Source of the DNA: a virus
Virus record (IMG/VR): IMGVR_UViG_3300035034_003774
Direction: 5' to 3' (one strand)
DNA length: 64,000 nt
Made by a program: the position numbers and the translations under genes
Shown here: in pieces, positions 3,176 through 58,093 of the stretch
Numbering within the stretch: position 1 is the stretch's first letter
Layout: each line of letters starts with the position of its first letter
The notes under the pieces: generated by a model
The model's database searches: none
Seen by the model: the letters and a program-made list of their open reading frames with translations, nothing else
Told to the model about the DNA's origin: nothing

Positions 3176-3180
3176 AATTT

Positions 3181-5124: not shown

Positions 5125-5144
5125 GTTTATTTTAATCTTTTTTA

Positions 5145-5173
5145 GTTATACGCATATTGCGAAAAAATGTTTC
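5145..5173 (-). promoter_or_regulatory. sigma70-like promoter GAAACA-N17-TATAAC upstream of rnr
   Basis: minus-strand reading GAAACATTTTTTCGCAATATGCGTATAAC; member of a repeated promoter family in this window. Confidence 0.5.
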
Positions 5174-17436: not shown

Positions 17437-17499
17437 TATTTGGTTTTATATTGAAACTTTTATAATTTTGTAACGTATTTATATACACAAGCATTAATT

Positions 17500-17794: not shown

Positions 17795-17835
17795 TTTAAA
17801 GTTATTAACATGTTAATAACTTTTTAAAATTTGAT

Positions 17836-40167: not shown

Positions 40168-41376
40168 TTATACTTTATCTACAAGGAAAAGTCCAAGTGT
40201 TTTCATACCAAGTTCTAAATCCTCCTTCAATGTACTGAACATCACTTCATTTTCTGGATTTCCCTTGATCTGATGAGTTTCATAAAGCTTGTTAATCTTC
40301 TTGCAATAATCTATGAGCGCATTAAACAATATATTTGGCTGAAGGTTATATAAAGACTTCATATATGCATATTGAAGCTCTGTACTATTGAATTTATCAA
40401 CCTTCATTGCTCGAACTCCAGCGGAAGTTAATCGTGCAAGCGTGTAAGAAACATATAAGCCTGGAGAATTTTTGGCATTATCAATTAACTCTACATTAAC
40501 CTTCTTATCTTTAGATGGGTCCACCTTAAGTATAAAACCAGCTAGAACATTATAAGAAAGATCATAATCGTTATCAAACTTATCAAGACAATCCTTTAAT
40601 ATATCATCAAAATAAATAACATTTCCATCACGACTTGACATTTTAAGCTCTTTAACTTCTCCGTCTTCTGGGTCTTTCTTCATCACCTTAACAAGACCAA
40701 GCCCAATGTGGTTTGTCAATGGACAAATCTTTTTAAGCATATTAAAATGACCATTCTGTTCGTTTCCAGTTAAATATAATGTTGGAGCATTTAGCTTGTC
40801 TGCAAGTGCTACATCTTGATACAAATAACTACTTGAGCCATCACTCTTAACTCCAACTACTTTCTCATCCCCTATGTGAAACACTTGAGTGCCTTCATAG
40901 CTACCTTCTCCTGGCTTTAACAAACTTCCTTTGTACTCCATAGAAGAAGCATAATAAACATCACTTACATGCAGATCGAATGTATCACAATAAGTTCTAT
41001 ACATATGATATGCTTCATGCTTTTCTACATCTCCTTCTAAAGTATCTCCAAGAATGGATATAAACTTATCAGCAACTCCCATTGACTGAAGTGTCTTGGC
41101 TATAATGAAATTGGACATATGCCCAATGTGTAAGTGCTTATTAAGATTTGGGCTAAAACCATCACAATACTTATATTGAGAGAATTTCTCAAAACACTCA
41201 GAAATATCAAAGTTTTTTGGAACCAATATGTTTGTGTACGGAGAACTGTCTTCAAGACGAAAACCCCAGGACTCAGCCCAGTCTTTAATTTCACTGTTGG
41301 GCTTACCATATACGCAGAATCCGAATTCACCATCTCCAGGTATAACTCGAATGTTATTTATGTTTATTTTCTTCAT
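40168..41376 (-). CDS. class I aminoacyl-tRNA synthetase, arginyl-tRNA synthetase-like (truncated N-terminus)
   Basis: HIGH motif (LHIGHMSNF), KMSSRDG (KMSKS-like), C-terminal NSPGLYVSYTLARL resembling the ArgRS DALR anticodon-binding domain. Confidence 0.5.
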   Translation of the reverse strand: MKKININNIRVIPGDGEFGFCVYGKPNSEIKDWAESWGFRLEDSSPYTNILVPKNFDISECFEKFSQYKYCDGFSPNLNKHLHIGHMSNFIIAKTLQSMGVADKFISILGDTLEGDVEKHEAYHMYRTYCDTFDLHVSDVYYASSMEYKGSLLKPGEGSYEGTQVFHIGDEKVVGVKSDGSSSYLYQDVALADKLNAPTLYLTGNEQNGHFNMLKKICPLTNHIGLGLVKVMKKDPEDGEVKELKMSSRDGNVIYFDDILKDCLDKFDNDYDLSYNVLAGFILKVDPSKDKKVNVELIDNAKNSPGLYVSYTLARLTSAGVRAMKVDKFNSTELQYAYMKSLYNLQPNILFNALIDYCKKINKLYETHQIKGNPENEVMFSTLKEDLELGMKTLGLFLVDKV

Positions 41377-41959
41377 CTATTATTTTTTTTATAGCTTTTT
41401 TCTTATTCATTTTTAGTACGTACTCTGAATGCTCTTCAAACATACCTTTTGCCTTAGCTGCATTAACTCCCTTTTCAAGTCTTGGATAAAAGTTAACAGC
41501 AGTTCCAATAGTCATGTGAAAACCAAAATAAGGCTTCTTGCTCAACCCCAACTCTTGCCTTATTGAATGGAGTTGGTCTCTAAATTGATATGGTACGGTT
41601 AACCACCAATCCTCGAAATTACCTTGCCTATTCTGAATCCCCAAGAAAGGGTCAACATGCACAGTTACCTCGATCTCTTTACCATTCCATTTTTTCTTAA
41701 CCTCTTCCCACTTTCCATTTGTTTCTGAAGCTCTATCATTTACAAGAGTAACGTGAGCTCCCCTAATTGGTTTTTGCAAAATTAGATTATACCTCTTCTT
41801 TATGAACCAAGCATAATAATCTGTAATACCCTTGTGATGATTATCTGACTCAAATAATATCAAAGCAGATTTCTTCCACTCAGAGTGACGCTCCTGCTTT
41901 GAGGTTATTACTTCTGGGTCAAAAACTATCTTTCCCTTAAATTTTACGCAATTATCCAT
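41354..41959 (-). CDS. 2H phosphoesterase (LigT / 2'-5' RNA ligase-like)
   Basis: two H-x-T-x motifs (AHVTLV and FHMTIG). Confidence 0.5.
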   Translation of the reverse strand: MDNCVKFKGKIVFDPEVITSKQERHSEWKKSALILFESDNHHKGITDYYAWFIKKRYNLILQKPIRGAHVTLVNDRASETNGKWEEVKKKWNGKEIEVTVHVDPFLGIQNRQGNFEDWWLTVPYQFRDQLHSIRQELGLSKKPYFGFHMTIGTAVNFYPRLEKGVNAAKAKGMFEEHSEYVLKMNKKKAIKKIIDEENKHK

Positions 41960-42015
41960 TTTTACTCAAAAAAAAAGACCCACTTAAAGTGAGCCTTATA
42001 TAAATTTTAATTGGC

Positions 42016-42483
42016 TTACTTCTTCTCTATTTTCCAAACACCCAGCCCCTTTGTATTAAATACAGAGTACCTATCTTCATAAGCGAGTATAGCTCCGTTA
42101 CTAAGTGTAAATCCTACACTAAAATCTTCACCCTCCACACTGAACTTTGCACCATCATTACCAATTGGTTCTACAGACATTCCCACTATAGTTGTGGTAT
42201 CTTGGTTAAATGTCAACAGACCACCTTTATAAAATTCAGCCTCACTAATTATGCAATTAAGACCAGCTATCTTCCTTCCATTTGGTAGGTTGACGCTATC
42301 ATCTAATTGACAACTCCTGATTTCAAGACCATATCCAGGAATTTCCTTAGAACCCACAAGATATGGAATATTGTCACCTATGGCCTGATCTGTCTCTGGC
42401 TTATAAAAAGCGACATAAGTACTATCTTGCGAAAAACTGCAAAAAGATGTAAGTGTAATCAAAAGTAGTAGTAAAGTTTTCAT
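42016..42483 (-). CDS. secreted hypothetical protein
   Basis: signal peptide MKTLLLLLITLTSFCSFSQ. Confidence 0.3.
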   Translation of the reverse strand: MKTLLLLLITLTSFCSFSQDSTYVAFYKPETDQAIGDNIPYLVGSKEIPGYGLEIRSCQLDDSVNLPNGRKIAGLNCIISEAEFYKGGLLTFNQDTTTIVGMSVEPIGNDGAKFSVEGEDFSVGFTLSNGAILAYEDRYSVFNTKGLGVWKIEKK

Positions 42484-42486
42484 GTT

Positions 42487-43056
42487 TTATTTTTTTAATA
42501 GTTCATCAGCCTTTTCTTTAACGACTTTCATATCAACTTCAAGACCCTTAAATCCTCCCATGATCTTACCAATGTGGTTCGCACCCCCATCAACTAACTC
42601 CTGTAACTTAGCATCAATTTCCTGCTCAGTCATTTGCTTTGGAAGATAAGATTGAACCACTTCAAGCTCCATTTCTTCATTCCAGTCTTGTGGTGGAAAA
42701 TCCTTTGAAGCATTTGCATCAATAACACTCATAAGAGATTTCTCAAACTTCTTTAAAACTTTAATAACCTCTTCATCAGAAGGTTCTTTAGAATCTTTTG
42801 TAGCATCCCCCTTAACAAGTCCAAGGAAGTTCTTCTTTTCCATTTTCTTCGCTTTGAAAGCGTCGATGAAATCTTTGTTTATTTTTTCAATTAAAGTTGA
42901 CATATGTTTTTTATTTAAAGCGAATTTAATACAAAATTTGGTATCTGCAAAATTATTTATTTGAAATGTTTTTGCCATCAATACGTCTTTGAATGGTGAA
43001 CTCTCTCTTTCCACCGCAGAACTTACTCCACTGCTTACTTCCAATAAGTTCTTCAA
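42487..43056 (-). CDS. GatB/YqeY-domain protein
   Basis: C-terminal ...VQSYLPKQMTEQEIDAKLQELVDGGANHIGKIMGGFKG resembles the YqeY/GatB C-terminal domain. Confidence 0.45.
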   Translation of the reverse strand: MKNLLEVSSGVSSAVERESSPFKDVLMAKTFQINNFADTKFCIKFALNKKHMSTLIEKINKDFIDAFKAKKMEKKNFLGLVKGDATKDSKEPSDEEVIKVLKKFEKSLMSVIDANASKDFPPQDWNEEMELEVVQSYLPKQMTEQEIDAKLQELVDGGANHIGKIMGGFKGLEVDMKVVKEKADELLKK

Positions 43057-43288
43057 GGAAATCTGGAGTTATAAATCCATGCCAAAAAAAAGAATCTCCT
43101 TTATTTATGTTCTTCTCATAACCCCAACTAAGGACAAGGTATCCTTCATCTTTGAATCTGTACTTATCCATTTTCTCTAGGTTGTCTTCACTCTTATTTT
43201 TAAGTTGAGACACATCTACCTTATAGATAATATTTTGAAGAGGCTTTTTATTACGCTCTACACCTTTATTTGCATGTTCTTTTCCCAT
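42953..43288 (-). CDS. hypothetical protein (overlaps upstream gene 3' end)
   Basis: 111-aa ORF. Confidence 0.25.
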   Translation of the reverse strand: MGKEHANKGVERNKKPLQNIIYKVDVSQLKNKSEDNLEKMDKYRFKDEGYLVLSWGYEKNINKGDSFFWHGFITPDFLEELIGSKQWSKFCGGKREFTIQRRIDGKNISNK

Positions 43289-43322
43289 AGTAAGTTTTAC
43301 GCAAAAAAATAATTATGTTACA

Positions 43323-44456
43323 TTATTCATCATTCCAGCAATGACATCCATGATCTGCGTTATGACATGAACTACACACTCCAATAGATACGTTAATTAT
43401 TTTCCTTCTTTGAGAATCGTTAAGTCCTGGTACGTTTTCTTTTAATTGATCATAGAAGTATCTATAATCAGAAAACATTTCATCCATTGTTATTTCTCCC
43501 TCTGGGATGTATTGCTCAGCAATAGAATCATCTTCTTCTGCCCATACAGCAACTTCCCCATCATTCATAAACATAAGGTCCCTTCGATCAATAGGTTCTT
43601 TTAAAACAAGTTTTTTAAAGTACTTAAAGAACTTACTTCCTGGAACCTTAAATAGAGTGTCATGCTTTTCAGATAATCCACCCATTTTAGTCTGGTAGAT
43701 AGTCTGTACGCACATACCCCTTCCAAAGCCTTCATTCTTAAATACTTTGTAATGAGTAGGCATACCTATCATTTCATTTTTAATAATGTTTCCAATGGCG
43801 CTATTAATTATTTGAATTCTATTTACAGCAATCTTATGATCTGGTCTTAGCTTCAAAATTAATTCATCATGAGAAATAAAAACAAAATCATCCTCCTCAA
43901 AATCATAATCATCAATAAGAGCGTTAACAATTTTGATAATATTGCTATGCTGCCTTCTCTGGAGTCTCTTTGGATTTGTATTACCAAATACATACTGCCT
44001 AAATGACTTAGACTTAGAGAGAGTGTGATGAATATCAAGGTCCCTACACAGTCCCTCCCAAGAATCTCCAAGAGCATCAGAAGAATCAAATGTCTTTAAT
44101 GCATTATAATTAGCAGACTTAAAGTCAATAGAAATAAGATAGGTATTATCGTTATTTCTAAGATCATCCTTAGTCCTAAGTTTATCTGGCAAACTCCAGT
44201 CCATAAGATTCTTATATGCTTCAGAATTTACAAGGTAATCCTTCATTCTTGGAAGTGCATACTCAAGCTTGTATGACTTAGCGCTCTTATAGCCAAGTTC
44301 TTCACAATCCCTCTCGTATTGCTCATATTCTTTTACGAGATTTGGAAGGCCTGCATAAAAAGAGTCTCTAGCCAAGGTATCAATATAATACTGGGCATGC
44401 TCCTTTACAGGTATGTTTACCTTAAATAATTTTTGAAATTCTGTTAAATCTTTCAT
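43323..44456 (-). CDS. hypothetical protein with C-terminal Cys/His cluster
   Basis: CSSCHNADHGCHCWNDE tail. Confidence 0.3.
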   Translation of the reverse strand: MKDLTEFQKLFKVNIPVKEHAQYYIDTLARDSFYAGLPNLVKEYEQYERDCEELGYKSAKSYKLEYALPRMKDYLVNSEAYKNLMDWSLPDKLRTKDDLRNNDNTYLISIDFKSANYNALKTFDSSDALGDSWEGLCRDLDIHHTLSKSKSFRQYVFGNTNPKRLQRRQHSNIIKIVNALIDDYDFEEDDFVFISHDELILKLRPDHKIAVNRIQIINSAIGNIIKNEMIGMPTHYKVFKNEGFGRGMCVQTIYQTKMGGLSEKHDTLFKVPGSKFFKYFKKLVLKEPIDRRDLMFMNDGEVAVWAEEDDSIAEQYIPEGEITMDEMFSDYRYFYDQLKENVPGLNDSQRRKIINVSIGVCSSCHNADHGCHCWNDE

Positions 44457-45724
44457 TTATATTTTTTTCTAATGCTTTGATCTAAATAAAAATCTTTCCT
44501 AATCTTAACAAGAGTGTCATTGATGAGTTCTCTTGGAACTTGGTCTGGTAAATCTGAATTATCAAACAAAGTGTCAAGTTCGTTCATTTCTTTTTCAGCC
44601 CAATCAAGTAATTCCTCAAGATCAACCTTACCCTTCCTTACATCAAGAAGCTCCTCACGATTAGGCCTACGAATGGTCATCGTTCCAGTCTCAGCAATTT
44701 CTCTCGCAATCTGTAGCAACCTCTTACAATGCATAAGGTTTTTTCCATCATAACTTTGTCCATGCTCCTTATTATCAACATAGCGCTGCTCATTACGATT
44801 TTCCAACCACGTTTGATAGTTGGAGTAATCCTTACAAGACTTTGTATAAGAATCCTTGTTGTAAATAAGTTGAGTCACTGGCTGCTGACCCTTGGGTATA
44901 GAACTAAGTCTAAGTTGATTTGACTCGGAAGTGCTTTTTCCAACCCCAGTCTTAGAAACTCCTTTATAACCAAGACCCATTGACTTTTTAGCTTCTTTAA
45001 ATATTTTCTTGTTATGCTCTCTATTCTCTTCCGTCTCAAGTTCAGAAAAGCATATATGAGCATCCCAATCATAAAATAAAGCATAAACATCCCTTGCATT
45101 TGGTATTTTTGTGACTCCACAAAACTTCTGCTCCATCCCACAATTGTCAAGATACTTTTTAAGAGACTGTGTGCCGTAACCAGTTTCATCAATTACATAA
45201 CAAAAATCAATCGGCTCCTTTCGGGTAACACGATCACGTTCCCAATTCTGCATCTTATCAAGACCCTTAGCCTTCTGAATTTGCTTTTTAGCATATCCAG
45301 CAAAACTATATCTACATATCTTTGTTAAAAGCTGATCTCTTATATCAACAGCATGCTGATAAGCTTTGTGCTGTGTTATAATACAATCTTCTGGACTATA
45401 AAAAAGCTCAAGAACTGTTGGATTATTGCTATGAGCTAGTTCAAGAAATCTCTTGATTTCAAAACCAGTATAATCAGCATGAACCCTCACTTGATCAGAG
45501 TACTCAAAATCAAGACCATAAATTTTATCTTGCGGAAGGATATAAATAAAGGCTTTATCTACATCTGACTCTGGAGTCGATGTTCCATGAGCCTGAGAGC
45601 CTGTAATGGCTTCAAATAAAATGCAGTCATTATCTTTTAATAAATTATAAAACTCAAGGGCTTTACGCTCCTTGAGTTTCATTTTTTTATTATTATCCTC
45701 CAAATCTTTATTAATTCCTGTCAT
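44453..45724 (-). CDS. Pol-beta superfamily nucleotidyltransferase
   Basis: GSQAHGTSTPESDVDKAFIY = GS-x9-12-DxD NTase signature. Confidence 0.45.
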   Translation of the reverse strand: MTGINKDLEDNNKKMKLKERKALEFYNLLKDNDCILFEAITGSQAHGTSTPESDVDKAFIYILPQDKIYGLDFEYSDQVRVHADYTGFEIKRFLELAHSNNPTVLELFYSPEDCIITQHKAYQHAVDIRDQLLTKICRYSFAGYAKKQIQKAKGLDKMQNWERDRVTRKEPIDFCYVIDETGYGTQSLKKYLDNCGMEQKFCGVTKIPNARDVYALFYDWDAHICFSELETEENREHNKKIFKEAKKSMGLGYKGVSKTGVGKSTSESNQLRLSSIPKGQQPVTQLIYNKDSYTKSCKDYSNYQTWLENRNEQRYVDNKEHGQSYDGKNLMHCKRLLQIAREIAETGTMTIRRPNREELLDVRKGKVDLEELLDWAEKEMNELDTLFDNSDLPDQVPRELINDTLVKIRKDFYLDQSIRKKYK

Positions 45725-45775: not shown

Positions 45776-47242
45776 TTAGTTGGTGCTATCCATATCACCC
45801 TTCATAGAGTCTTCATCTGGTCCTCCGACCATTCCGTCTCCATACTCTTCTGAAGGAGCGATTGACTGCTCTGAAGATTTATTCATGTAATCATCTTCAC
45901 ATACTTCCAAATCTTCGTCAACATCTTCTTCCTCCCACAAATCTTCGTCAACATCTTCTTGCTCCGAAAGATCAAAACCAGTTGACTTCTTAACCTCTCC
46001 TTTCAGATTTCCATCCTTAAGGTAATGAGCATTTCTTATTGAGTCTATTGTTTTAAGCTCACTCTTTATCTCACTAATAATCCAATTAACATCGTATTCC
46101 TCGATACCAAGGGTATCAACCTTACGCATTATCTGTCTTACTGCGCTATATACATGCGAACCAGTTAGTTTAGAATTGTAAAATAAATCCACAATCTTAC
46201 TATTAGTAAACATCTCTGCAGATGGGTGATTTTTACCAAACTTAAAGTTATACTTAAGTGACTTCAAGATAATGTTTTTAATATTACCTTTTGTAATAGA
46301 ATCAAAGCTCATGATCTTATCAAAACGCCCTGGTCTCTGAGCTGCAAGGTCAAGCAATTGTATAGAGTTTGTTGTAGCAATAATTCCAACTCCATTAGAA
46401 ATCTTATCAGTACCATCAAGAGCGTCTAAGAATGTTCCAAGTGATCTTGATACTGCTCCCTTGTTTCTTGAACCTAATGATAAATCAATATCATCAAATA
46501 TAATCAAACACGGAGAAAGTAATTCAGCTAACTCAATCTTCTCCTTAAGAGCATCACAAACTACTGTCTTAATAATTGTAACTCCCTGCTTCTTAAGAAT
46601 GTTTGAAATTGCAAGAGTAGACTCTGTTTTACCTGTACCAGGAGTACCGCAGAAAAGGTATCTCATAATATCACCCTTCTTTTCATACAAACCTGTAAAT
46701 AACTGCAGGTCTTGCATGATAGTCTCTGGAAGGTAGATGTCTCCGTAATCTCTTCTCTCAAGCGCTCTAACATCCCAAGCTAACTCATTATAAGGCATTG
46801 TAAAATAAGAACCCTTAAGGTTAGACTGAGCAATTGCACTATAGATGATCTTCTTATAAAGAAACTCAGAGTTAACGTAAGTTGATTTATTTGAAGTAAA
46901 AGATACCTCACTAACCCATTTTCCATCAACCATATATCTTGATAAAACTACAAAAAGAGTAAACTCATCTTTATAGTCCAAAATAATCTTTACGTTGATG
47001 CTTCCACTTGCTCGCTCTGGAAGGTTCTCATCAAATACATTTCTTGAAGAAACGAAGCCTACAACATGCAGGCCTTGCTCTTTTTGTTTTTTCTTGTTGT
47101 CATTTAGAATGTTAAAGTAATCAAACAAGATTTTTAACATTGGGGTATTAATTTTCTGACCCATGCTAACTCTTGACATGTACTCATTCTTTTGCTCAAT
47201 AATCGCTTCTTTTTTGAGCTGATCAAAATTCATGTTTTCCAT
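45776..47242 (-). CDS. AAA+ ATPase with acidic C-terminal repeat tail
   Basis: Walker A GTPGTGKT, Walker B IIFDDID, second region of homology (PGRFD); C-terminal EDVDEDL repeats. Confidence 0.75.
   Translation of the reverse strand: MENMNFDQLKKEAIIEQKNEYMSRVSMGQKINTPMLKILFDYFNILNDNKKKQKEQGLHVVGFVSSRNVFDENLPERASGSINVKIILDYKDEFTLFVVLSRYMVDGKWVSEVSFTSNKSTYVNSEFLYKKIIYSAIAQSNLKGSYFTMPYNELAWDVRALERRDYGDIYLPETIMQDLQLFTGLYEKKGDIMRYLFCGTPGTGKTESTLAISNILKKQGVTIIKTVVCDALKEKIELAELLSPCLIIFDDIDLSLGSRNKGAVSRSLGTFLDALDGTDKISNGVGIIATTNSIQLLDLAAQRPGRFDKIMSFDSITKGNIKNIILKSLKYNFKFGKNHPSAEMFTNSKIVDLFYNSKLTGSHVYSAVRQIMRKVDTLGIEEYDVNWIISEIKSELKTIDSIRNAHYLKDGNLKGEVKKSTGFDLSEQEDVDEDLWEEEDVDEDLEVCEDDYMNKSSEQSIAPSEEYGDGMVGGPDEDSMKGDMDSTN
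45908..45960 (-). repeat. intragenic direct repeat (23-nt unit x2, period 30) encoding duplicated EEDVDEDL
   Basis: caaatcttcgtcaacatcttctt at 45908-45930 and 45938-45960. Confidence 0.6.
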
Positions 47243-47285
47243 TTTATCTTTTTTTGTTGTCTCCTAATTGTTAGAAATTCTAATT

Positions 47286-48065
47286 TTATAAAATCTCTGA
47301 TTTAAAATTGTCCATATCCAAGTTCATCCTGTAGGATTTTTTACCTCCATACCTGTTTTTGATGATCTTGAGTGTAAAATTACTTCTTTTTCTCCAGAAC
47401 AGCAAAGAATCTACAATCTTTTTCAAAAGTTTTTTCCAAAAACCTGGCTTAGGCTCTCTGTTAATGCTTATTACGCAATCACTTTGTTGAAGTATTTTTT
47501 TAGAATTTGATAAACTCTTTAACAAATCCTTAGACATAAACTCATCCATCAACTCATTTACCTCTTCTGGCTTTTGATGGGCAGTAAAAACTGGCATATT
47601 AATACACTTCATTAAAATTGACGTAACCCCCTTTGTTTGAGATATTAAACTAATTTTAGAAATAACCGAATCCTCACTTGAGATGTCTGAGCTATCATTA
47701 ACATATGGAAGGATGTCAAAGAATACATACTTCAAATCCATCTGACTCTTAACCTCATCAATACTTTTATTAACCACAGACATCCAATCTGAATCATTCG
47801 GTATTTGGTGTGCATCAATAATTCCAAGATTTCCCGTTATTGATTCTGGTTTCTCCTCGTTATTTAAAAACTCTTTAAAGAAATCATTTATCTTAACTGA
47901 GTCATGGTTAAAACTAAAATACAATACGTTTTCACCTTGCTTCATAAGATCAATGGCTTGAGAAACTGGGACCATTATACTTTCTTCCATCGGAAGAGAT
48001 AGTATTGTTACAACAGAATTCATACCCAACGTCTTTGATGTGTAAATTTTACTATAATCACTCAT
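47286..48065 (-). CDS. hypothetical protein
   Basis: 259-aa ORF between the AAA+ and kinase genes. Confidence 0.3.
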   Translation of the reverse strand: MSDYSKIYTSKTLGMNSVVTILSLPMEESIMVPVSQAIDLMKQGENVLYFSFNHDSVKINDFFKEFLNNEEKPESITGNLGIIDAHQIPNDSDWMSVVNKSIDEVKSQMDLKYVFFDILPYVNDSSDISSEDSVISKISLISQTKGVTSILMKCINMPVFTAHQKPEEVNELMDEFMSKDLLKSLSNSKKILQQSDCVISINREPKPGFWKKLLKKIVDSLLFWRKRSNFTLKIIKNRYGGKKSYRMNLDMDNFKSEIL

Positions 48066-48255
48066 GATCTAATTTTTCATTAACTAATTCAACTAACTCC
48101 TCAAGTATCTCAAGTTGAATATCTCTATCAACTTGATCGAATCCAGATAGACCTCTTCTACCATCCATGCTATTCAACATTGAAAATACTATGTCTTCAG
48201 ACTTTGTTAAGTCAATTTTTTCATCTGTATTTTCAAACTTTTCTAATAAATCCAT
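48058..48255 (-). CDS. hypothetical small acidic protein
   Basis: 65-aa ORF. Confidence 0.25.
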   Translation of the reverse strand: MDLLEKFENTDEKIDLTKSEDIVFSMLNSMDGRRGLSGFDQVDRDIQLEILEELVELVNEKLDHE

Positions 48256-48258
48256 TTT

Positions 48259-49971
48259 CTATTTTTTATTTAAAAGTGCAACTGTATTTCCTTCCCAGAC
48301 AATTATTCCAGAATTGGACTTATTTAAAACGCTCTGAGAAGTGATAATATCACAAGTCATCTCCCCAACCTTTTCAAAGTCCTGAGTTCTGTATAACTCA
48401 ATTCTATCATCCATTGGCATAAACAATATCCCATCCTTATCCTTTCTTCCAGAGCTATCAACATTAGGAATAAAAGCAAAGTGACTAATAATATCGAAGT
48501 CTCTCTGAGATACTTTTAACTTGAGGTTATCAATCTTAAACATCTTATATCTTAACTTCTTCTTTTCCTCATATTGAAGCATGCCTACATTTCCAACTTG
48601 CTGTATGCTATGTATATTTCCTATTGAGGATGATACAAGTGAAATATTCCTACCTGAATTATACATTATATTCTGCTTACCTCCAGAATTATGTATAAGA
48701 CCATTATGTGTATTAAACGCCTTTCCAAACACTCCGACCCTCTCTGTATGAACATTATCTGCACCAACCTGATCAATGTATACTTTATACATTACATCAT
48801 CACCGATAACAATTAATATGTTCTCCATTTGTATAGTCTGGCAATTGTGTGGAAACGTGAAGTTTGTTAGTTTCTGCGTCTTATTTTTGTTATAATGATA
48901 AAGTGAATCACCCTTCTTTAGTAATACATTTTCCTCACCAATATATGCCTCATCCCACCCACTCTTAGTAATTGAGTGTTTAAGATTTACGTATCCTTTG
49001 TTTTTAGAATTATAAATATGAAATTCTTTACCTGTCTCAACAATACCTTGATCATTTAAGAAAAAGACATTAACTATGTCAGAGTCTTGCGTGATCATAG
49101 AAATTATTAGATCATTTTGCTCATACTTCTTAACCATCTTAGGTTTATTAAGAGGGCTCGTAGCAATCACTGAATCATCAACCCCAGTGAGCGAAAGAAG
49201 AAATCTTTCTCCATTCAAATACATCTTTTTAAATTGGCTCATGAAGTTCTTGTCCTGTATTGGCTCATAACACTTAGGAATCTTTATATCTGAGCTATTA
49301 ACAAATACTGGTAGCTTATTAATCATTCTATCTCCAAGCTTCTTATAATCCTTATGCATTCCCTTGAAAGGGTGCAAGAAAGCAAGCATATTAAAAGATA
49401 ATATAGATAAGGCAAAAAAGTCACTATCCTCACTTACACGACCTTGATATAAATAATCTCTTACCTCTTCGAGCAATATATGAGAATGAGGAAATCCAGT
49501 AGTCTGATAAGAGTCTGTATCAATTAGCTTTATCACCCCTTGGTTGTTAACCAATATGTTAAATGGGTTAAAGTCTCCAATTACCACATTTTCTTTGTGA
49601 GCATATTTTACAGCAGCAATCAACTTCTCAATTACCTTCATTTTTACCTTCTTAGTAATTCCATTGTTCTTGCAGAACTTTTTATTATAAAAATTAGAAA
49701 GAGAGAAAAATGTTTGATCAATATACTTCATCGTATACCCAATAACAACTCCCTTATTGTCATAGATTAAATCAATTGGAGCAACGAAGTAATTAGGGTC
49801 CAATCTCTTTAGGAATTGAAACTTCTTCTGACTTATTGGTGTAATACCATCGTGGTAAATCTTGGCAACTGTATTTGAATCAATTTCATATACAACCCCT
49901 TCACCGCCCTGGTTAATTTCTTTTGAGGGGTCAATGTTTATTTTCCCCTTATTTGCTACTGCTGTTATCAT
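48259..49971 (-). CDS. protein kinase-like (Ser/Thr kinase fold) protein
   Basis: glycine-loop-like QGGEGVVYE, VAKIY lysine, catalytic-loop-like IGDFNPFNIL, DFG-equivalent IDTDS. Confidence 0.5.
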   Translation of the reverse strand: MITAVANKGKINIDPSKEINQGGEGVVYEIDSNTVAKIYHDGITPISQKKFQFLKRLDPNYFVAPIDLIYDNKGVVIGYTMKYIDQTFFSLSNFYNKKFCKNNGITKKVKMKVIEKLIAAVKYAHKENVVIGDFNPFNILVNNQGVIKLIDTDSYQTTGFPHSHILLEEVRDYLYQGRVSEDSDFFALSILSFNMLAFLHPFKGMHKDYKKLGDRMINKLPVFVNSSDIKIPKCYEPIQDKNFMSQFKKMYLNGERFLLSLTGVDDSVIATSPLNKPKMVKKYEQNDLIISMITQDSDIVNVFFLNDQGIVETGKEFHIYNSKNKGYVNLKHSITKSGWDEAYIGEENVLLKKGDSLYHYNKNKTQKLTNFTFPHNCQTIQMENILIVIGDDVMYKVYIDQVGADNVHTERVGVFGKAFNTHNGLIHNSGGKQNIMYNSGRNISLVSSSIGNIHSIQQVGNVGMLQYEEKKKLRYKMFKIDNLKLKVSQRDFDIISHFAFIPNVDSSGRKDKDGILFMPMDDRIELYRTQDFEKVGEMTCDIITSQSVLNKSNSGIIVWEGNTVALLNKK

Positions 49972-50803
49972 CTTCTTGTTCTTTTATGACGAGTCTGATC
50001 ATGCTTAGATCATCTTTATGCACTGATTTGTGAACCTTTCTTATAATGTTTAATTTCTTAGAAAGCATTATCTTATTGTTCAAGAACTTATCATCCTCAA
50101 ATAGATATTCAATTACATCTAAATCCCCCTCAATATTTGTAAAGGTAAGAACTCCGTCAGTAGATATTACAATATTCTTCGGGTCAGTAAACTTGCGCTT
50201 GCCAACGTATTTTGCATACCACATGTCAAAATAAGACTTGTCCAAATATATATCATCCAGTTCATATGCAATGTAGTCTGGCATATCTTGATACTTATCT
50301 GGGCTTATTGATTGAAACTTGTCATTCTCTATAACTTCAAGCTCCTTATCACAATAAATAAGGCCATCTCCAACATTTGTCACAATTGCTTCTCCATGAA
50401 CCTTGTCATACATTAATAACATAAAAGTAGATAGCATATCTCCAGTACTTAATCGTAAAATACCTTTTACATCTATCAACTTTTCGACAAACTTCTTCAT
50501 CAAGTCCTTCGCCTTCTCTTCAATCGTATTTCCGTAGATAGCACCCTCCTCTGTGATCTGCCTAAAAACCTTGCCCTGCAAAGAAGATGCAAAGTGAGAC
50601 TCTCTACCACCACTACATCCATCAAACACAACTCCAAGAAAGAATCTTCCGTGATCTACGGTAGTGGTAAAGTCTTCACAAAATACTGGATGGTCTTCAC
50701 CCTTTCTGATGACTGACCGAACTACTAACTCTCTTTTTGTTTGTTTCTCCATCTCCGTAGACGACCCACTGGAGTGATTCGACTTTTGTTTTGATAAGCT
50801 CAT
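49949..50803 (-). CDS. PP2C-family Ser/Thr phosphatase-like protein
   Basis: GVVFDGCSGG (cf. GVFDGHGG), TNVGDG (cf. NVGDSR), VISTDGV (cf. TDG). Confidence 0.5.
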   Translation of the reverse strand: MSLSKQKSNHSSGSSTEMEKQTKRELVVRSVIRKGEDHPVFCEDFTTTVDHGRFFLGVVFDGCSGGRESHFASSLQGKVFRQITEEGAIYGNTIEEKAKDLMKKFVEKLIDVKGILRLSTGDMLSTFMLLMYDKVHGEAIVTNVGDGLIYCDKELEVIENDKFQSISPDKYQDMPDYIAYELDDIYLDKSYFDMWYAKYVGKRKFTDPKNIVISTDGVLTFTNIEGDLDVIEYLFEDDKFLNNKIMLSKKLNIIRKVHKSVHKDDLSMIRLVIKEQEDDNSSSK

Positions 50804-50951
50804 ATTCTGATTGTATTTTTAGGAAGTCAAAAGGATATATTTCTCCTCCGTTCTGCTTTTCTTCTATTGCAGAAAAATAAGCATCCTCAGCCAACTCAAG
50901 CTCTGGCTTAAGTTCAGCTATTTTCTTAATTATTTCAGTTCTACTTTTCAT
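50697..50951 (-). CDS. hypothetical small protein (overlaps PP2C start region)
   Basis: 84-aa ORF. Confidence 0.25.
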   Translation of the reverse strand: MKSRTEIIKKIAELKPELELAEDAYFSAIEEKQNGGEIYPFDFLKIQSEYELIKTKVESLQWVVYGDGETNKKRVSSSVSHQKG

Positions 50952-51205
50952 TTCTTTGGCCTAAGTCTCTTTTTATCTGGAAAGACTCTCTCTATAAAGT
51001 CATACCTATTCATTAAATCAAGAGCCTCTTCATCCGTCTTATACCACTTATAATCTTTTATAAACCCTCCATAAGATTTGACTATAGTGCCTAAATATTT
51101 TTTCTTACCCATAACAAACCTCATAAAAAGTGGATATAAAAATCTACTTAATATATAAAGTCCGCAGAGGAACAAAAAAAGCAATAAGACTAATTTAGTT
51201 ATCAT
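50948..51205 (-). CDS. small membrane protein
   Basis: N-terminal TM helix, basic C-terminus. Confidence 0.3.
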   Translation of the reverse strand: MITKLVLLLFLFLCGLYILSRFLYPLFMRFVMGKKKYLGTIVKSYGGFIKDYKWYKTDEEALDLMNRYDFIERVFPDKKRLRPKK

Positions 51206-51213
51206 AATATTAT

Positions 51214-51239
51214 AAAAAAGGGAGCCACGAAGGACTCCC
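51214..51239 (-). terminator. rho-independent terminator after vWA gene
   Basis: GGGAG-TCCTTCGTGG-CTCCC then TTTTTT on minus strand. Confidence 0.5.
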
Positions 51240-51269
51240 TTTCACCTTCTAATATATTAATATCAACTC

Positions 51270-51980
51270 TTAGAAATTAACAGTAGATATTGCATTACCT
51301 CCAGCACTTGCAGAAGAGACAGAGCTTGAAATGAAATTAATCATTTTCTTGATGTCGTCTGCAGAGTCAGAAATAGTAGCAACGTTTTTGATACCCATAT
51401 CATCAGCTGCTTGTCTAAAAGTATCTTCCATTCCTTGCTGACCTCCAATACCAAATAAAATTGATTCGAATGAAGCAAAGTTTCTTTCTTCAGAAAGAAG
51501 ATCAGTAATGATGTCCTTAACATCACTTGCGCTCCCTGGCTGATTGTTTTCACCATCTGTGATCACAAAAAGAAGAGTCTTACAGTTTACACCCGCATTT
51601 TCAAGACCCTCTCTATAATCAAGAGCATTTTTAAGAGCAACCTTAGTTCCTTCATACAAAGAAGTAAGCCCTCCTATTGAGTTAGTGAAATCAACTGGAG
51701 CCAATTGATTAATTGGTTGAAACCCTGTTTTCACATTAACTTTTGTTTCAAACTCTACGATTGAAACGAATAGCTTTTCAGCAACATGTGAGTTCTGCAT
51801 TCTTTGAGTAAACTCATTGATGCCTTTGTTTAGTTCATCAACGTATGAGCCAACAGACCCAGATACGTCAACAGCGAATACAGCGTTAATCGTATCTTCA
51901 ACTTCTACGTCATCTGGGTTAAAGTTCCCAAAATTGTAATCAAAATCAACGTTGTTTTCACTTTTTTCTGATGTTTCCAT
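51270..51980 (-). CDS. von Willebrand factor A (vWA, TerY-like) domain protein
   Basis: MIDAS motif AVDVSGSVGS (DxSxS) ... T ... ITDGENN. Confidence 0.6.
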   Translation of the reverse strand: METSEKSENNVDFDYNFGNFNPDDVEVEDTINAVFAVDVSGSVGSYVDELNKGINEFTQRMQNSHVAEKLFVSIVEFETKVNVKTGFQPINQLAPVDFTNSIGGLTSLYEGTKVALKNALDYREGLENAGVNCKTLLFVITDGENNQPGSASDVKDIITDLLSEERNFASFESILFGIGGQQGMEDTFRQAADDMGIKNVATISDSADDIKKMINFISSSVSSASAGGNAISTVNF

Positions 51981-52001: not shown

Positions 52002-52030
52002 AAAAAAACTGAGAGGACTAAGCCTCTCAG
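52002..52030 (-). terminator. rho-independent terminator after pncA-like gene
   Basis: CTGAGAGG-CTTAGT-CCTCTCAG then TTTTTTT on minus strand. Confidence 0.65.
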
Positions 52031-52038
52031 TAAGTTGT

Positions 52039-52887
52039 TTATACTGCAGTAGTAGCTCCAGATCGTGAATTAATATTCTCAGCAGTTGTTGTTGAGAACT
52101 TTACTCCAAGATTTTTAGCCTCATCATAAATGGGTTGAGCTAATTCTCCAAAAGTAGGAGTTGTGCCTGGTCCATTTGGTCCGCCTGGTACGTCTGACAT
52201 ACAGTCCTCAAGAATTATAAACTTTTTAGCAAGAGTAGGAGCTTTTCTTACTACCTGCTTAAGCGTATTGGCAACACAGTGCGACTTAGCTTGGCCTGCA
52301 AGGTAAACTGTATCATACTTCTCAAGAATCTGCTGAAGCTTGAGGTTGTACTGAGTCTCTGGTATGTTTTGAATTGGTACCTGAGCTTCAAATGCACCGA
52401 AATGCTCTGTATCTGGATGCACTCCCTTTGCTACAAAGTGAACTGACTTTCCACGACCTCTCTGCCAATTTGTAATGGCACCATCAATTTTTTCATCAAG
52501 AGAATGACCCCATGAACCAATTCTACAGTGCTCTGGCCATATTACGTGAACATACTCACCTTCATCTTCAAGACTTTGTATGTAATCCATAGCATGCTGA
52601 GGTTTAACAGCATTCCACTTACCATCTTTAATATCCTGAAGTGAAATTGAAGTGAATGGCGCTGGATGATTACCATCCTTATCTTTCCAGTAACCTGGAT
52701 GAGCGATGTCATTTACTTGGTGAGAGTCAAGAGTACATCCAATGTATTCTATCTCATCACTATTATTCAAAATCCATTGAGACAATCTTTCGTTGTCATC
52801 TTCGGCTCCAGGTACATATAGCGACCCCTGAGGGTGGCAAAAGTCACGCTGAGCGTCAATTATTAAAATTGCTACTTTCTTTTTCAT
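52039..52887 (-). CDS. pncA: nicotinamidase/pyrazinamidase (isochorismatase-family cysteine hydrolase) with insertions
   Basis: IIDAQRDFC, WPEHC, K, SHCV (catalytic Cys) in PncA order. Confidence 0.6.
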   Translation of the reverse strand: MKKKVAILIIDAQRDFCHPQGSLYVPGAEDDNERLSQWILNNSDEIEYIGCTLDSHQVNDIAHPGYWKDKDGNHPAPFTSISLQDIKDGKWNAVKPQHAMDYIQSLEDEGEYVHVIWPEHCRIGSWGHSLDEKIDGAITNWQRGRGKSVHFVAKGVHPDTEHFGAFEAQVPIQNIPETQYNLKLQQILEKYDTVYLAGQAKSHCVANTLKQVVRKAPTLAKKFIILEDCMSDVPGGPNGPGTTPTFGELAQPIYDEAKNLGVKFSTTTAENINSRSGATTAV

Positions 52888-54037: not shown

Positions 54038-56758
54038 TTACAACCTTGGGTCAAGTTCATACTCCTTCTTCTCCTCAAGAACCATCTCTGCACAAGCCTG
54101 AACATAACTCTTGTTTTCTTTTCCTATCTTGTTGTAAGGAATTTCAAGAAGTCGCTTACCAATTTCCCACTCTTTAACAGAAACCTCCAACTTCTTAAAC
54201 GTTTTCTTACGACTAATAAGTTTTGAAAGTTTTTGTGGCATAAGGTAATCTGGTCCATAAATAATTGTTAGATACCTTGGGTTCCTAACTTTTATAGATG
54301 GAGCAACACCCTCGGTATACACATCCATAGGTTTAAGCATAATACCTTCCATTTCCTCTACATTAGTAGTGTTATCATAGAATTCTTTAAGCTTTTGAAT
54401 TTCTTCCTCCGAATTGATGTCGATGACAACAAATTCATCATCATTAACAGCGCTATAAACTTCCTCATTAGTAGAGTTGAAGAATAGCTTCTCAGAGCCA
54501 TCATCAAACACTTGCTTTAAGATAGAGAATGGCTTAAAATGAACATCTCCATCCGAACCATAAAGCTCTATCTGTTTTGAATATATTTCAGAAGCCTTCT
54601 TAAGATCATCCAGATTGGAGAACTCTCTATCAAAATCTCTAATACATCTGTAAGTCATAGCTCTATTTGAGCCGAACTTCTTGTCTAAACTTTTTCTTGA
54701 GGCCTTGTGCTGTACATTCTCATAATCAGACTCAGCATAAGGGCCATTAAAAATTTTATTGAACTCTTCTTCAAAACCAGTCTTCCTAAGAAAATCAATC
54801 TCACTATGAATAGCCTTATCTACAGTTACAAAATTCTTTTCAATCATGCCTCTACCCATTGCAGACCAAGGGAGAAGCTCAGCATCAAGAATTAATAACT
54901 CTGTCCCACTTTTGAATGCTTCCTTAACAAATGGAAGTTCATAAAGAGGTTTATACGCATCTGTTAGATCAAGTTTCTCTGGCTTAATTCTAAACCCACC
55001 TCTTGATGTAGAGTAGTTTTTATCTGGGTCAGAAAATAAGTATATATTAGCTCTTGAGCCCATGTACTTAGGCTGGGCCACCACTTTAGAAATACCTTTA
55101 CTTTTAAAGTAGTTTACCGCCTGATCTAAAGACTCAAGCTCACTATCCTCAAGAATGACTTCTTTATTTTCATCCTTTGAGATCACTTTATTCGCTGGAC
55201 AAATTGTTCCAGAAACAAAATTAACACCCCCCTCTGAAGCATAATAAATTCTTCCACGATCTCTACCTTCAAGATCATCTAAACTAACCTTTGGGGGTGG
55301 AGTGTAGAAAAAGTCATTAAGCTCTTTGCTATTAATCTTTTCATTGTACTTAGAGGAAACCTCCTTAATGAATGGTCGACCCCATGTATTAACAACAACA
55401 GAAGTTAGCTTACCTCCAGATACACATCCAGTATCAATATTTATCTTATTAGACTTAATCCCAACCCTATCAGTTGAAACATGCCCAAATACATGAGTTG
55501 GATATGATCGAGAAGATTGATTCCTGAAATAACTAAAGAACTTATACTTACTGTATAGGTACTCCGCCTTATCATCAAACTCCTGACGCTTTGGATAAAC
55601 TACAGTCATCTGGTTTCTTTCAGAGTTCTTGCCAAGCTTACCTAAATATTTCTGATCACAAGGAGCATGAGTAACAATGAAGTCATCTGACTTTAGAAAT
55701 GGCTTCATGACATCAAATATGTCATAAAACTTTTGCTTAAGCTCATCATCATCTCTAAAAAGCTCAATACTATCAAAATAAGTGTCAATAACGTCTTGAG
55801 GCGGAAGGTCTTTTACTCTTATTCCAGAATTATTATCTGAACCTTCAGATTCAAGATAATGAAGGTATTTGTAAACAAAGTTTTCATGATTACCCTTCAC
55901 CATGTGGAACCAGTCCATGTTATCATGCACAAACTCAATAACTGCACGAACATCATAACCTTTATCAACAAGATCGCCCACAAGAACTATTTTCTTCCCG
56001 CTTTCTTGACCAGTTATTTTACCGTTCTCAATTTCAAAATCATTCTTTTCAAGAAGTTTGATAAACTCATCGTAACAACCATGAATATCACCAATGATTA
56101 CATATTCTCCTTCTGGGAGCTGGCAATCTTGGTATCTATCATAGTTTGTTATGTTTATATCAACCTTATCAAGATTATGAGATTTGATTTTGTAAATATC
56201 TCTGAAATGTTTTTTACTAAGTTCAGACATAACTGTCTTTCTCATGTAATCAACTTGACGATGAGTTGTTCGCTTGTTCTCCTCACTATCTTTATCAATA
56301 AATTTCTCATAAGCTGACCTACCCTTATAATCAAACATAACAACAGCGATGTTATAATTATTCTTATAGGCTATATCCTTGATCTCATCTCTAAAGCTTT
56401 TCTTAAGCCCAGTTGAGTCAACTACAACAAAATCAGAATTTATTGGATACGATGTAAGAGCATCAACCTTTGATTTAAGTACATCAAAAGCTGGAACACT
56501 TGCGTGCATCATTCTTTTATCACTTTTAGAAAGCGAATCATCTCCAAGAAATTCCTTTCTAATGTCATCAGAAGAAATTCTATGTATTGAAACATCGCCC
56601 TGAGCCTTTAGCGAAGGGATTAGCTTGTTTTCTGTAAAATATGTCTTACCACACCCACTTGGACCAACGAGTAATACGATGGTGTGCATCCTCAAGTCGA
56701 TATTAACGACTTTGGACTCTCTGGGAGTATTCTTTACTTTGAATGTCTCTTCTTGCAT
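54038..56758 (-). CDS. polynucleotide kinase-phosphatase (Pnkp-like)
   Basis: N-terminal P-loop kinase (LLVGPSGCGKTY), central calcineurin-like phosphoesterase (GDIHGCYDEF, GDLVDKG, GNHE), and a ~400-aa C-terminal domain with a possible KYMGSR motif I. Probable true start at internal Met24 (MHTIVLLVG). Confidence 0.6.
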   Translation of the reverse strand: MQEETFKVKNTPRESKVVNIDLRMHTIVLLVGPSGCGKTYFTENKLIPSLKAQGDVSIHRISSDDIRKEFLGDDSLSKSDKRMMHASVPAFDVLKSKVDALTSYPINSDFVVVDSTGLKKSFRDEIKDIAYKNNYNIAVVMFDYKGRSAYEKFIDKDSEENKRTTHRQVDYMRKTVMSELSKKHFRDIYKIKSHNLDKVDINITNYDRYQDCQLPEGEYVIIGDIHGCYDEFIKLLEKNDFEIENGKITGQESGKKIVLVGDLVDKGYDVRAVIEFVHDNMDWFHMVKGNHENFVYKYLHYLESEGSDNNSGIRVKDLPPQDVIDTYFDSIELFRDDDELKQKFYDIFDVMKPFLKSDDFIVTHAPCDQKYLGKLGKNSERNQMTVVYPKRQEFDDKAEYLYSKYKFFSYFRNQSSRSYPTHVFGHVSTDRVGIKSNKINIDTGCVSGGKLTSVVVNTWGRPFIKEVSSKYNEKINSKELNDFFYTPPPKVSLDDLEGRDRGRIYYASEGGVNFVSGTICPANKVISKDENKEVILEDSELESLDQAVNYFKSKGISKVVAQPKYMGSRANIYLFSDPDKNYSTSRGGFRIKPEKLDLTDAYKPLYELPFVKEAFKSGTELLILDAELLPWSAMGRGMIEKNFVTVDKAIHSEIDFLRKTGFEEEFNKIFNGPYAESDYENVQHKASRKSLDKKFGSNRAMTYRCIRDFDREFSNLDDLKKASEIYSKQIELYGSDGDVHFKPFSILKQVFDDGSEKLFFNSTNEEVYSAVNDDEFVVIDINSEEEIQKLKEFYDNTTNVEEMEGIMLKPMDVYTEGVAPSIKVRNPRYLTIIYGPDYLMPQKLSKLISRKKTFKKLEVSVKEWEIGKRLLEIPYNKIGKENKSYVQACAEMVLEEKKEYELDPRL

Positions 56759-56763
56759 ATCTA

Positions 56764-56792
56764 TTTATACGTTAATTTTCTAAAATTGTTAC
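56764..56792 (-). promoter_or_regulatory. sigma70-like promoter GTAACA-N17-TATAAA
   Basis: minus strand GTAACAATTTTAGAAAATTAACGTATAAA; -10 only 6 nt from the annotated ATG 56758, supporting a downstream true start. Confidence 0.45.
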
Positions 56793-58093
56793 TTAAACTT
56801 GACAATAATTCCCTGACTCGGTGAAACACCTTCAACAACATCTCCAATTCCGAACCATTCAATAAGCTCAAGTTTGTCCTTAATTGGATATAAAACACCA
56901 TTCATGAAGTCCTTAAACTGCTTATCATCCCATTCAAAATCATGATCTTCATGACGCATCCCTTCCATAAAGTAATTGTCATTAAACCTTACGTCTGGAG
57001 TTGTTACAATTAGAGTTCCTATATTAGGAACATCAAGCATTTCTTTAAGCAGTTCTGTAGCTTTATGTGGCTCCATATGCTCAATAACTTCAGTGCATAT
57101 AATATCAATCTTTTGGTTGTTTCCATCTCCAGACTCAAGAAACTGATCTACTGTTTTATAGAACTCTACATTCTTAAGACCTTTTCTCTTGACTCTTTTC
57201 TCAGCCTTCTCTCTAACATCGTCATCAATATCAACAGCAAAATAATTAAGGTCCTTCATAAATCTGTTAAACCTACTTATATACTTACCTTCACCGCAAC
57301 CAACATCAAGAATGCTATTTCTAAAATCAAGTCTCTCTTGAATTGCCATCTGACGAGCTTGCCATGTATCTCCATACTTTATCTCAATGTCTTTCTGAGT
57401 ATTTTTTGACAAATCCTCTTGAACGCTTTTAAATGTCTTGAAGTTGATCAAGAATCTTTTCTTAAACAAGTATCTCACAAAATATGGAGCATCAATAATA
57501 TTCATGCATCTAACATACTTCATAGCATTTTCTTCATTGACATACATTGGCTCGTTATTAACGATTGCCTGGAATATTCCAAATAGACTGGCGAAATTTA
57601 AAAGCTCATATATAGACTTCTTTGTAGTAATTTTGATTTGATAATTCTTCCCACTAACCACCTCGTGTTCTACTTTATAGTCTGGGAAATAATCATTAAA
57701 TGCATCAATGTACCTTGAGTTCCATACATAAATCATATTAATAAAGAACACACTTTCGTTACCGCCTTCATCTTTTTTGGTGCCATCTACAATTGAATAC
57801 TCATTAGATTTAAAAGCACTCCTAAGCATATCATCAATAGCGCTTACTACAAAAGTAGCAGAGTTATATCTGGATGTGTTAAGGTATTCAAAAGTCTCCC
57901 CCTCATGAGATGGAAATGAAACTTCATCACTACCATCCTTGAAGAATAAATTATACTCCTGTTCACTACCTTTGGTGTAATAACCAAATATAGTACCCTG
58001 TCTCATAGTTTTGGCTTGAAGTCCTGTAGCAGGATTCTTACTAATAATAAATGAAAAGTCTTTATTATCACTCTTTAATTGTACAATACTCAT
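56789..58093 (-). CDS. Hen1-like RNA 3'-terminal 2'-O-methyltransferase (SAM-dependent MTase in C-terminal half)
   Basis: motif I ILDVGCGEGKY, post-I YFAVDIDDD, motif II DIICTEVIEHM; adjacency to Pnkp-like gene as in the bacterial Pnkp/Hen1 operon. Confidence 0.5.
   Translation of the reverse strand: MSIVQLKSDNKDFSFIISKNPATGLQAKTMRQGTIFGYYTKGSEQEYNLFFKDGSDEVSFPSHEGETFEYLNTSRYNSATFVVSAIDDMLRSAFKSNEYSIVDGTKKDEGGNESVFFINMIYVWNSRYIDAFNDYFPDYKVEHEVVSGKNYQIKITTKKSIYELLNFASLFGIFQAIVNNEPMYVNEENAMKYVRCMNIIDAPYFVRYLFKKRFLINFKTFKSVQEDLSKNTQKDIEIKYGDTWQARQMAIQERLDFRNSILDVGCGEGKYISRFNRFMKDLNYFAVDIDDDVREKAEKRVKRKGLKNVEFYKTVDQFLESGDGNNQKIDIICTEVIEHMEPHKATELLKEMLDVPNIGTLIVTTPDVRFNDNYFMEGMRHEDHDFEWDDKQFKDFMNGVLYPIKDKLELIEWFGIGDVVEGVSPSQGIIVKFK

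Follow-up and report, generated by a model that had tools for sequence, protein, structure and literature searches.

Which genes make up the signaling cassette on the minus strand of IMG/VR record IMGVR_UViG_3300035034_003774, and what might it do for the virus that carries it? In this 64,000-nucleotide stretch of DNA (hereafter the window), an initial annotation made from the sequence alone had drawn a unit between positions 45776 and 51980: a von Willebrand factor A (vWA) protein, a protein phosphatase 2C (PP2C), and a Ser/Thr kinase in the order of the TerY-P phosphorylation triad, along with small proteins and an adjacent AAA+ ATPase. All of the open reading frames (ORFs) listed for that interval were found on the minus strand, with matching coordinates. 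Gene neighborhoods, whose counts are based on iterated hidden Markov model searches across 75 loci, delimit a different conserved unit of four genes, encoding a predicted nicotinamidase, the vWA protein, the PP2C, and a kinase joined to a beta-propeller, which starts one gene upstream of the annotated interval. This cassette is common to Bacteroidota and their huge phages, and in Bacteroidales it lies within nicotinamide adenine dinucleotide (NAD+) salvage operons headed by the regulator NrtR. We hold these statements of identity and context, taken by themselves, with high confidence.

Genes of the cassette

The first gene, which lies outside the interval annotated earlier, spans positions 52039 to 52887 (minus strand) and encodes a 282-amino-acid (aa) protein of the isochorismatase fold that is predicted to be a nicotinamidase of the PncA/Pnc1 type. 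It matches yeast Pnc1 (2h0r) with an E value of 1.2e-9, and in this alignment, which includes the motifs IIDAQRDF, LDSH, WPEHC, VAKG, and SHCV, it retains equivalents of the catalytic residues D8, K122, and C167 as well as the Asp/His/His zinc ligands (LDSH and WPEHC align with Pnc1 D51/H53/H94). The catalytic Asp-Lys-Cys is conserved in 30 homologues. The Pfam Isochorismatase model scores 23.4 bits, under its cut-off of 27; the family, with 1108 homologues, is named nicotinamidase by both JGI and NCBI. Members of the family also occur alone, and a PncA-like gene of phage G, its function not known, is mentioned in the literature.

Next comes a TerY/YegL-type vWA protein of 236 aa (51270 to 51980, minus strand; Pfam VWA_2 28.3 bits, cut-off 27), with 29% identity to Escherichia coli YegL across 124 aa (BLASTP, E = 5e-6) and with homologues that JGI labels "YegL." Its metal ion-dependent adhesion site (MIDAS) is intact, residues D38, S40, S42, T106, and D142 being invariant in homologues, and its C-terminal FISSSVSSAS corresponds to WLSSSLRSVS in YegL, giving the common motif [FW][IL]SxSxxSxS. 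An AlphaFold2 (AF2) model with a pLDDT (predicted local distance difference test) score of 86 adopts the vWA fold and places the Ser-rich motif in the last helix (residues 207 to 225). The best structural matches of this model in Foldseek are integrin I domains, in which the counterpart of the last helix gates MIDAS affinity; the ArnAB structure 8s05 is also among the matches. The gene is bracketed by terminator-like hairpins with U-runs, since one lies upstream and another directly after the stop codon. The former, between the nicotinamidase and vWA genes (52008 to 52031, minus strand), has a 9-bp stem with 5 GC and folds at −13.8 kcal/mol (z = −4.1), and the latter (51216 to 51243, minus strand) folds at −15.7 kcal/mol (z = −4.4), with 0 shuffles folding as well. 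A consensus terminator scan missed the second of these hairpins. Its presence bears out the earlier statement that the vWA gene has its own terminator.

The PP2C-family Ser/Thr phosphatase (49949 to 50803, minus strand; Pfam PP2C_2 31 bits, cut-off 24) keeps all four metal-binding Asp motifs, and its G..H...ED, FDG, GDG, DG, and DD motifs are invariant across 38 homologues; BLASTP detected no similarity to E. coli PphC. Its true start is probably Met18 at position 50752, to judge by the N termini of homologues. The PP2C and kinase ORFs overlap by 23 nucleotides, and overlaps of similar kind occur in loci L001 and L007.

The last gene (48259 to 49971, minus strand) encodes a YegI-type Ser/Thr kinase made up of a kinase domain (residues 1 to 253), a disordered linker, and a seven-bladed beta-propeller (residues 280 to 570). 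Pfam Pkinase matches only the N-terminal ∼250 aa (37.7 bits, cut-off 31.7), and the protein shares 26% identity with E. coli YegI across 213 aa (E = 7e-13), including the motif VAKIYH. Both kinases depart from the usual catalytic motifs, with IGD (VGD in YegI) replacing HRD and LIDTDS (LIDSDS in YegI) replacing DFG, and a Lys and an Asp line up with the pair of residues that proved essential in YegI. The G-loop, K37, D133, N138, D151, and D153 are invariant in 34 family members. In the AF2 model (pLDDT 85), residues 280 to 570 form a propeller of ∼28 strands and seven blades at high confidence, and Foldseek matches the model to the CDK2 and ASK1 kinases and to the Vps18 propeller. Searched alone against 1.84 billion representatives, the propeller returned only 102 clusters, nearly all of them 550- to 590-aa proteins with the propeller in the same position, or fragments; no other architecture was found among these representatives. 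The beta-propeller is specific to this kinase family.

The VWA_2, PP2C_2, Pkinase, and AAA assignments made earlier all score above curated cut-offs, and the proposed triad in TerY-P order is borne out: the order is conserved, the MIDAS and catalytic residues are intact, and the kinase fold is predicted by AF2. On these features the three genes are a real but divergent triad of the TerY-P/YegL-PphC-YegI type. Two viral contigs (L067, 6534 to 9908; L068, 3586 to 9917) carry canonical YegI-like triads without a nicotinamidase, their kinases ending in a zinc ribbon or membrane C terminus. The vWA proteins that are paired with propeller kinases have an invariant Phe at their end, and the vWA tails of these two triads end in a P.GW motif like that of E. 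coli YegL, which hints, in a small sample, that the vWA tail covaries with the kinase C-terminal domain.

Distribution and genomic setting

The order nicotinamidase-vWA-PP2C-kinase is kept in 19 of the 23 informative phage loci, with insertions in some, and all four genes are also present in nine bacterial loci; the gene directly upstream of vWA is nearly always a homologue of 52039 to 52887. Megablast of the region found no nucleotide-level relatives among GenBank phages; relatives were recognized at the protein level only. Syntenic relatives of the window comprise IMG/VR contigs as long as 501 kb and LR756500, a 462-kb uncultured phage that carries the four genes, including a full-length kinase homologue at 34% identity; relatives closer than LR756500 were found on IMG/VR and Logan contigs of 66 to 538 kb. 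The window had initially been taken for a virus genome, which this synteny supports, and it belongs to a huge phage with a Bacteroidota host. It also encodes transfer-messenger RNA (tmRNA), an aminoacyl-tRNA synthetase, RNase R, ClpP, and a protein with a type IX secretion system (T9SS) C-terminal sorting domain (Por_Secre_tail; 21268 to 22386, minus strand), the last of which points to a Bacteroidota host. The tmRNA gene, predicted by ARAGORN with its tag peptide (17465 to 17831, plus strand), sits in a block (about 14 to 21 kb) that is the only one of the window on the plus strand and in which the GC skew switches sign. In a neighbor-joining tree, phage and bacterial kinases are interleaved, which suggests repeated exchange. 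Solitary kinase-propeller genes also occur in Bacteroidota chromosomes, for example beside rplS (7953 to 9716 of L031, 7962 to 9656 of L035, and ∼18 others), with no vWA, PP2C, or nicotinamidase gene within 8 kb.

The bacterial loci place the cassette among genes of NAD+ salvage. Locus L074 has, in order, nrtR, pncB (encoding nicotinate phosphoribosyltransferase), nicotinamidase, vWA, PP2C, kinase, nadE, and a NUDT9-like Nudix gene, and L042, a Bacteroidales contig of 5.1 Mb, shows the same Pfam-confirmed order as far as nadE; in both, pncB adjoins the nicotinamidase gene. An NrtR-family gene stands immediately ahead of the nicotinamidase gene in four further loci (L005, L007, L016, and L017). 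The regulator has Pfam NUDIX and NrtR_WHD domains and scores 169 bits with the NCBIfam NtrR model, under the equivalog cut-off of 400. Upstream of nrtR, five loci share two G[TC]GT-N7-ACAC palindromes at fixed positions, 53 bp apart, and L074 has one; with a background of 0.03 per kb, these are candidate NrtR operators. A TAnnTTTG box, the Bacteroidetes −7 promoter element, overlaps the second of the two palindromes. Since some labels of metagenome-assembled genomes may reflect misbinned phage, the bacterial loci were checked as chromosomal: L042 measures 5.1 Mb, and L005 and L007 are flanked by TonB receptor, gliding/T9SS, and ATP synthase genes. Between nrtR and the nicotinamidase gene, L005 also contains ∼12 tandem copies of AAAACTCGA (5165 to 5275).

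Among phages, a full-length PncB is encoded in locus L065, with 6.6 kb between it and the kinase. A NadE-like match in LR756500 (28% identity across 166 aa) was too weak and was not used. The palindrome GTGTA-N7-TACAC was absent from the window even with one mismatch allowed. An ADP-ribosylglycohydrolase (30701 to 31483, minus strand; Pfam E = 4e-36) is a second NAD+/ADP-ribose-linked gene of the window.

Downstream of the kinase, the setting is particular to the phages closest to the window. Seven loci (L004, L048 to L052, and L070) are collinear with it across ∼15 genes, including those for Hen1, Pnkp, DnaJ, the cassette, AAA+, RlaP, and YqeY. Only in this clade does the AAA+ ATPase (45776 to 47242, minus strand; Pfam AAA 60.5 bits, cut-off 21.2) follow the kinase, always together with RlaP; it was absent from that position in LR756500, in L053 to L069, and in every bacterial locus. 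The protein is weakly similar to IetA, the proteasomal ATPase, and CDC48, and it carries the acidic C-terminal repeat described initially (EDVDEDL, twice). In the same block (45776 to 48255, minus strand), a 259-aa protein encoded upstream of AAA+ has only a weak DnaB_C/RecA-like match, and a 65-aa ORF had no homologue in the loci sampled. As for the two small proteins, the 84-aa ORF, which overlaps the PP2C ORF, has homologues in L048 and L049 only, and the 85-aa ORF, which has an N-terminal hydrophobic helix, had none in any locus sampled. We therefore rejected the AAA+ ATPase as a cassette component, its synteny being with RlaP within the clade of the window, and regard it, the 259-aa protein, and the small ORFs as clade-specific neighbors outside the unit. 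Co-inheritance across relatives, raised by the initial annotation as a check, thus holds for the vWA-PP2C-kinase order and fails for the AAA+ ATPase and the small ORFs that had been drawn with it.

An RNA-repair island flanks the cassette on both sides (41354 to 45724 and 54038 to 58093, minus strand). It comprises Hen1 (56789 to 58093), Pnkp with its ligase domain (54038 to 56758), the RlaP nucleotidyltransferase (44453 to 45724), YqeY (42487 to 43056), and a weakly matching 2H-phosphoesterase (41354 to 41959), all on the minus strand; a Thg1-like gene lies elsewhere in the window (24629 to 25465). In L070, a 195-kb relative, a LAGLIDADG endonuclease gene in opposite orientation splits Pnkp into kinase and ligase parts (2090 to 6209). 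A metallo-beta-lactamase-fold protein (39268 to 40110, minus strand) resembles the anti-Pycsar nuclease Apyc1 at a subthreshold level (33 bits, cut-off 50).

Proposed role and alternatives

We propose that the cassette is not a stand-alone triad and instead acts as a phosphorylation-gated nicotinamide-recycling module by which the phage sustains NAD+, a reading that we consider plausible though slightly short of probable. The kinase and PP2C would form a reversible phosphorylation switch with the propeller as its input domain. The vWA protein could serve as substrate or adaptor, with the kinase and PP2C setting the phosphorylation either of the Ser motif in its last helix (helix 7) or of the nicotinamidase, while its MIDAS would engage a partner. 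The output would be control of the conversion of nicotinamide to nicotinate and hence of NAD+ resynthesis by the Preiss-Handler pathway. In the phage, nicotinamide released by NAD+-cleaving host defenses, by ADP-ribosyl transfer, or by Tpt1-type RNA repair may thus be kept flowing back to NAD+ via host PncB, NadD, and NadE. A further and bolder version seems unlikely to us, though still within reach: that the propeller kinase and PP2C sense NAD+ breakdown or the state of infection and, via the vWA protein, switch the nicotinamidase on, so as to counter NAD+-depleting immunity, and that in Bacteroidales the same module is a native regulator of the Preiss-Handler pathway.

Several observations weigh against nicotinamide recycling as the role of the cassette. 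The coupling of triad to nicotinamidase is suggested by gene order alone. About 20 bacterial loci carry the kinase-propeller alone and two carry only PP2C and kinase, and together with the solitary nicotinamidases these indicate that the parts can work independently. The hairpins separating the nicotinamidase gene, the vWA gene, and the rest of the cassette in the window argue against strict cotranscription. The window contains no homologue of PncB, NadE, NrtR, or NUDT9, and its only two G[TC]GT-N7-ACAC sites (42105 and 52263) both fall within genes, at about the level expected by chance. Removal of nicotinamide would relieve product inhibition of NADases and so could hurt the phage, and TerY-P-like triads are documented as defense systems.

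That last point underlies the possibility that the cassette is cargo defense, or superinfection exclusion, of the TerY-P kind, in which the propeller kinase would sense a competing phage and the switch would trigger an effector. The nicotinamidase would then destroy nicotinamide, so that rivals could not rebuild NAD+ by the NAD+ reconstitution pathways NARP1 and NARP2, and would relieve NADase product inhibition, and the bacterial cassette would be induced by ADP-ribose through NrtR; the link of NrtR to ADP-ribose does fit a response to NADase activity. Modules resembling TerY-P are reported (Gao 2020, as cited in PMC11090510 and PMC7699616) to act against phage as stand-alone systems, and CoCoNuT restriction systems are accompanied by TerY-P (PMC11090510, PMC7699616). 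The kinase weakly matches the PADLOC kinase models PD-T4-6, MkoA, and mad6, and genes for a ParE-like toxin and for a Dam-like methyltransferase adjoin two of the bacterial cassettes. On the other hand, the bacterial neighbors are housekeeping or NAD+ enzymes and not defense islands, the kinase C terminus lacks the oligonucleotide/oligosaccharide-binding (OB) fold or zinc ribbon of described systems, and a nicotinamidase would be a weak abortive-infection effector. Against the PADLOC system models, the vWA protein had no match and the PP2C a single marginal one (PDC-M21C, E = 0.008), which is weak evidence. PADLOC gave neither a system-level match nor a TerY-P match; we rejected this null result as evidence against TerY-P membership, because YegL, PphC, and YegI of E. 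coli K-12 likewise have no TerY-P match. Conservation of the cassette order across deeply divergent huge phages, unlike that of patchy cargo, and of the kinase down to ∼30% identity argues for a role in infection over sporadic cargo, and we judge cargo defense improbable.

A role in infection could also be that of a host-takeover kinase, phosphorylating host proteins as T7 gp0.7 does under regulation by the PP2C and vWA proteins, with the nicotinamidase as an adjacent auxiliary metabolic gene. The intact catalytic residues, the abundance of host-manipulation, translation, and RNA-repair genes in the region, the hairpins separating genes, and the existence of kinase-propeller genes alone are all consistent with this. 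It nevertheless appears quite unlikely, given that the nicotinamidase-vWA adjacency is the tightest link of the block in phages and bacteria alike, that the same proteins in bacterial chromosomes cannot serve takeover, and that the conserved PP2C-kinase overlap suggests translational coupling. Very improbable, finally, is the arrangement drawn initially, in which the AAA+ ATPase downstream and the small ORFs would act jointly with the triad: in the window and the relatives closest to it, these genes run in one direction and are tightly spaced, but the ATPase tracks RlaP and not the triad, and neither it nor the small ORFs recur in the wider distribution given above.

If phosphorylation does gate the nicotinamidase, this would be the first Ser/Thr phosphocontrol of bacterial NAD+ salvage and would give a TerY-P-type triad a physiological function. 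Triads of the TerY-P/YegL-PphC-YegI type are widespread, and one inserted in an NrtR operon, with pncA on one side and nadE on the other, offers a concrete candidate output, namely, NAD+ salvage. Depletion and reconstitution of NAD+ are a central battleground between bacteria and phages, in which a regulated phage module built on a nicotinamidase would be a participant of a new kind. We found no literature linking nicotinamidase with vWA, kinase, and phage. That huge phages and their Bacteroidota hosts both carry the cassette makes for a tractable comparison and documents that a signaling module has passed between them by gene flow.

Relation to known systems

The closest known counterpart is the TerY-P triad (Anantharaman et al. 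2012, as cited in PMC11090510 and PMC4978471), represented in E. coli K-12 by yegL-pphC-yegI (bioRxiv 10.1101/819920), of which YegI and PphC have been characterized biochemically (bioRxiv 10.1101/819920, 10.1101/303594). The initial description of such triads as experimentally uncharacterized is outdated by this biochemistry and by the anti-phage activity reported by Gao 2020. As in TerY-P/YegL-PphC-YegI, the order is vWA, PP2C, and Ser/Thr kinase; the vWA protein combines a MIDAS with the C-terminal [FW][IL]SxSxxSxS motif; and the kinase resembles YegI in its atypical (V/I)GD catalytic loop, in D(S/T)D replacing DFG, and in the aligned essential Lys and Asp. Unlike the TerY-P kinases as described in PMC11090510, the cassette kinase carries a seven-bladed beta-propeller in place of the membrane/zinc-ribbon region of YegI, the CoCoNuT-linked zinc ribbon, or the OB fold of Gao 2020. 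The cassette differs further in being carried by huge phages, in a PP2C lacking BLASTP similarity to PphC, and in its linkage to nicotinamidase and NAD+ salvage and not to Ter, McrBC/CoCoNuT, or DNA-processing genes. In bacteria, its neighbors are genes of NAD+ salvage or of housekeeping functions, and in the phage they are RNA-repair or chaperone genes; the association with tellurite-resistance and defense islands invoked earlier was not seen at the loci.

In Sulfolobus, the vWA protein of the ArnA/ArnB pair is controlled by Ser/Thr kinases and a phosphatase. The regulation proposed for the cassette vWA would similarly act on a prokaryotic vWA protein through Ser/Thr phosphorylation. Unlike the cassette, the Arn system is archaeal, with ArnA as an FHA/zinc-ribbon partner and archaellum expression as the output, and the sequence relationship between the two is that of the vWA fold only.

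Among phage systems, the nearest comparison is with NARP1, NARP2, and NARP3, which use Adps/Namat, Nampt/Nmnat, and PnuC/NadR-like enzymes, respectively, the first two starting from nicotinamide. Like them, the cassette consists of phage genes that would act on products of NAD+ cleavage, with the proposed purpose of sustaining NAD+ in infection. Unlike it, none of the three uses a nicotinamidase or a kinase/phosphatase switch, and the NARP papers mention no nicotinamidase; no NARP enzyme family was found among the window ORFs scanned with Pfam, which were part of the total. The cassette, known from genes alone, also differs in that it cannot make NAD+ by itself and would need the PncB, NadD, and NadE of the host.

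The bacterial loci correspond most closely to NrtR-regulated NAD+ salvage I (Preiss-Handler) operons, with which they share nrtR, pncB, a PncA-type nicotinamidase, nadE, a Nudix hydrolase of the ADP-ribose type, and palindromic candidate operators upstream of nrtR (PMC2330246). Operons of pncA, pncB, and nadE under NrtR control are familiar from other phyla, and the survey that describes them mentions no insertion of vWA or kinase genes (PMC2330246). The Bacteroidales operons, in contrast, hold three signaling genes between pncA and nadE, and the phage keeps the nicotinamidase together with this triad, without NrtR.

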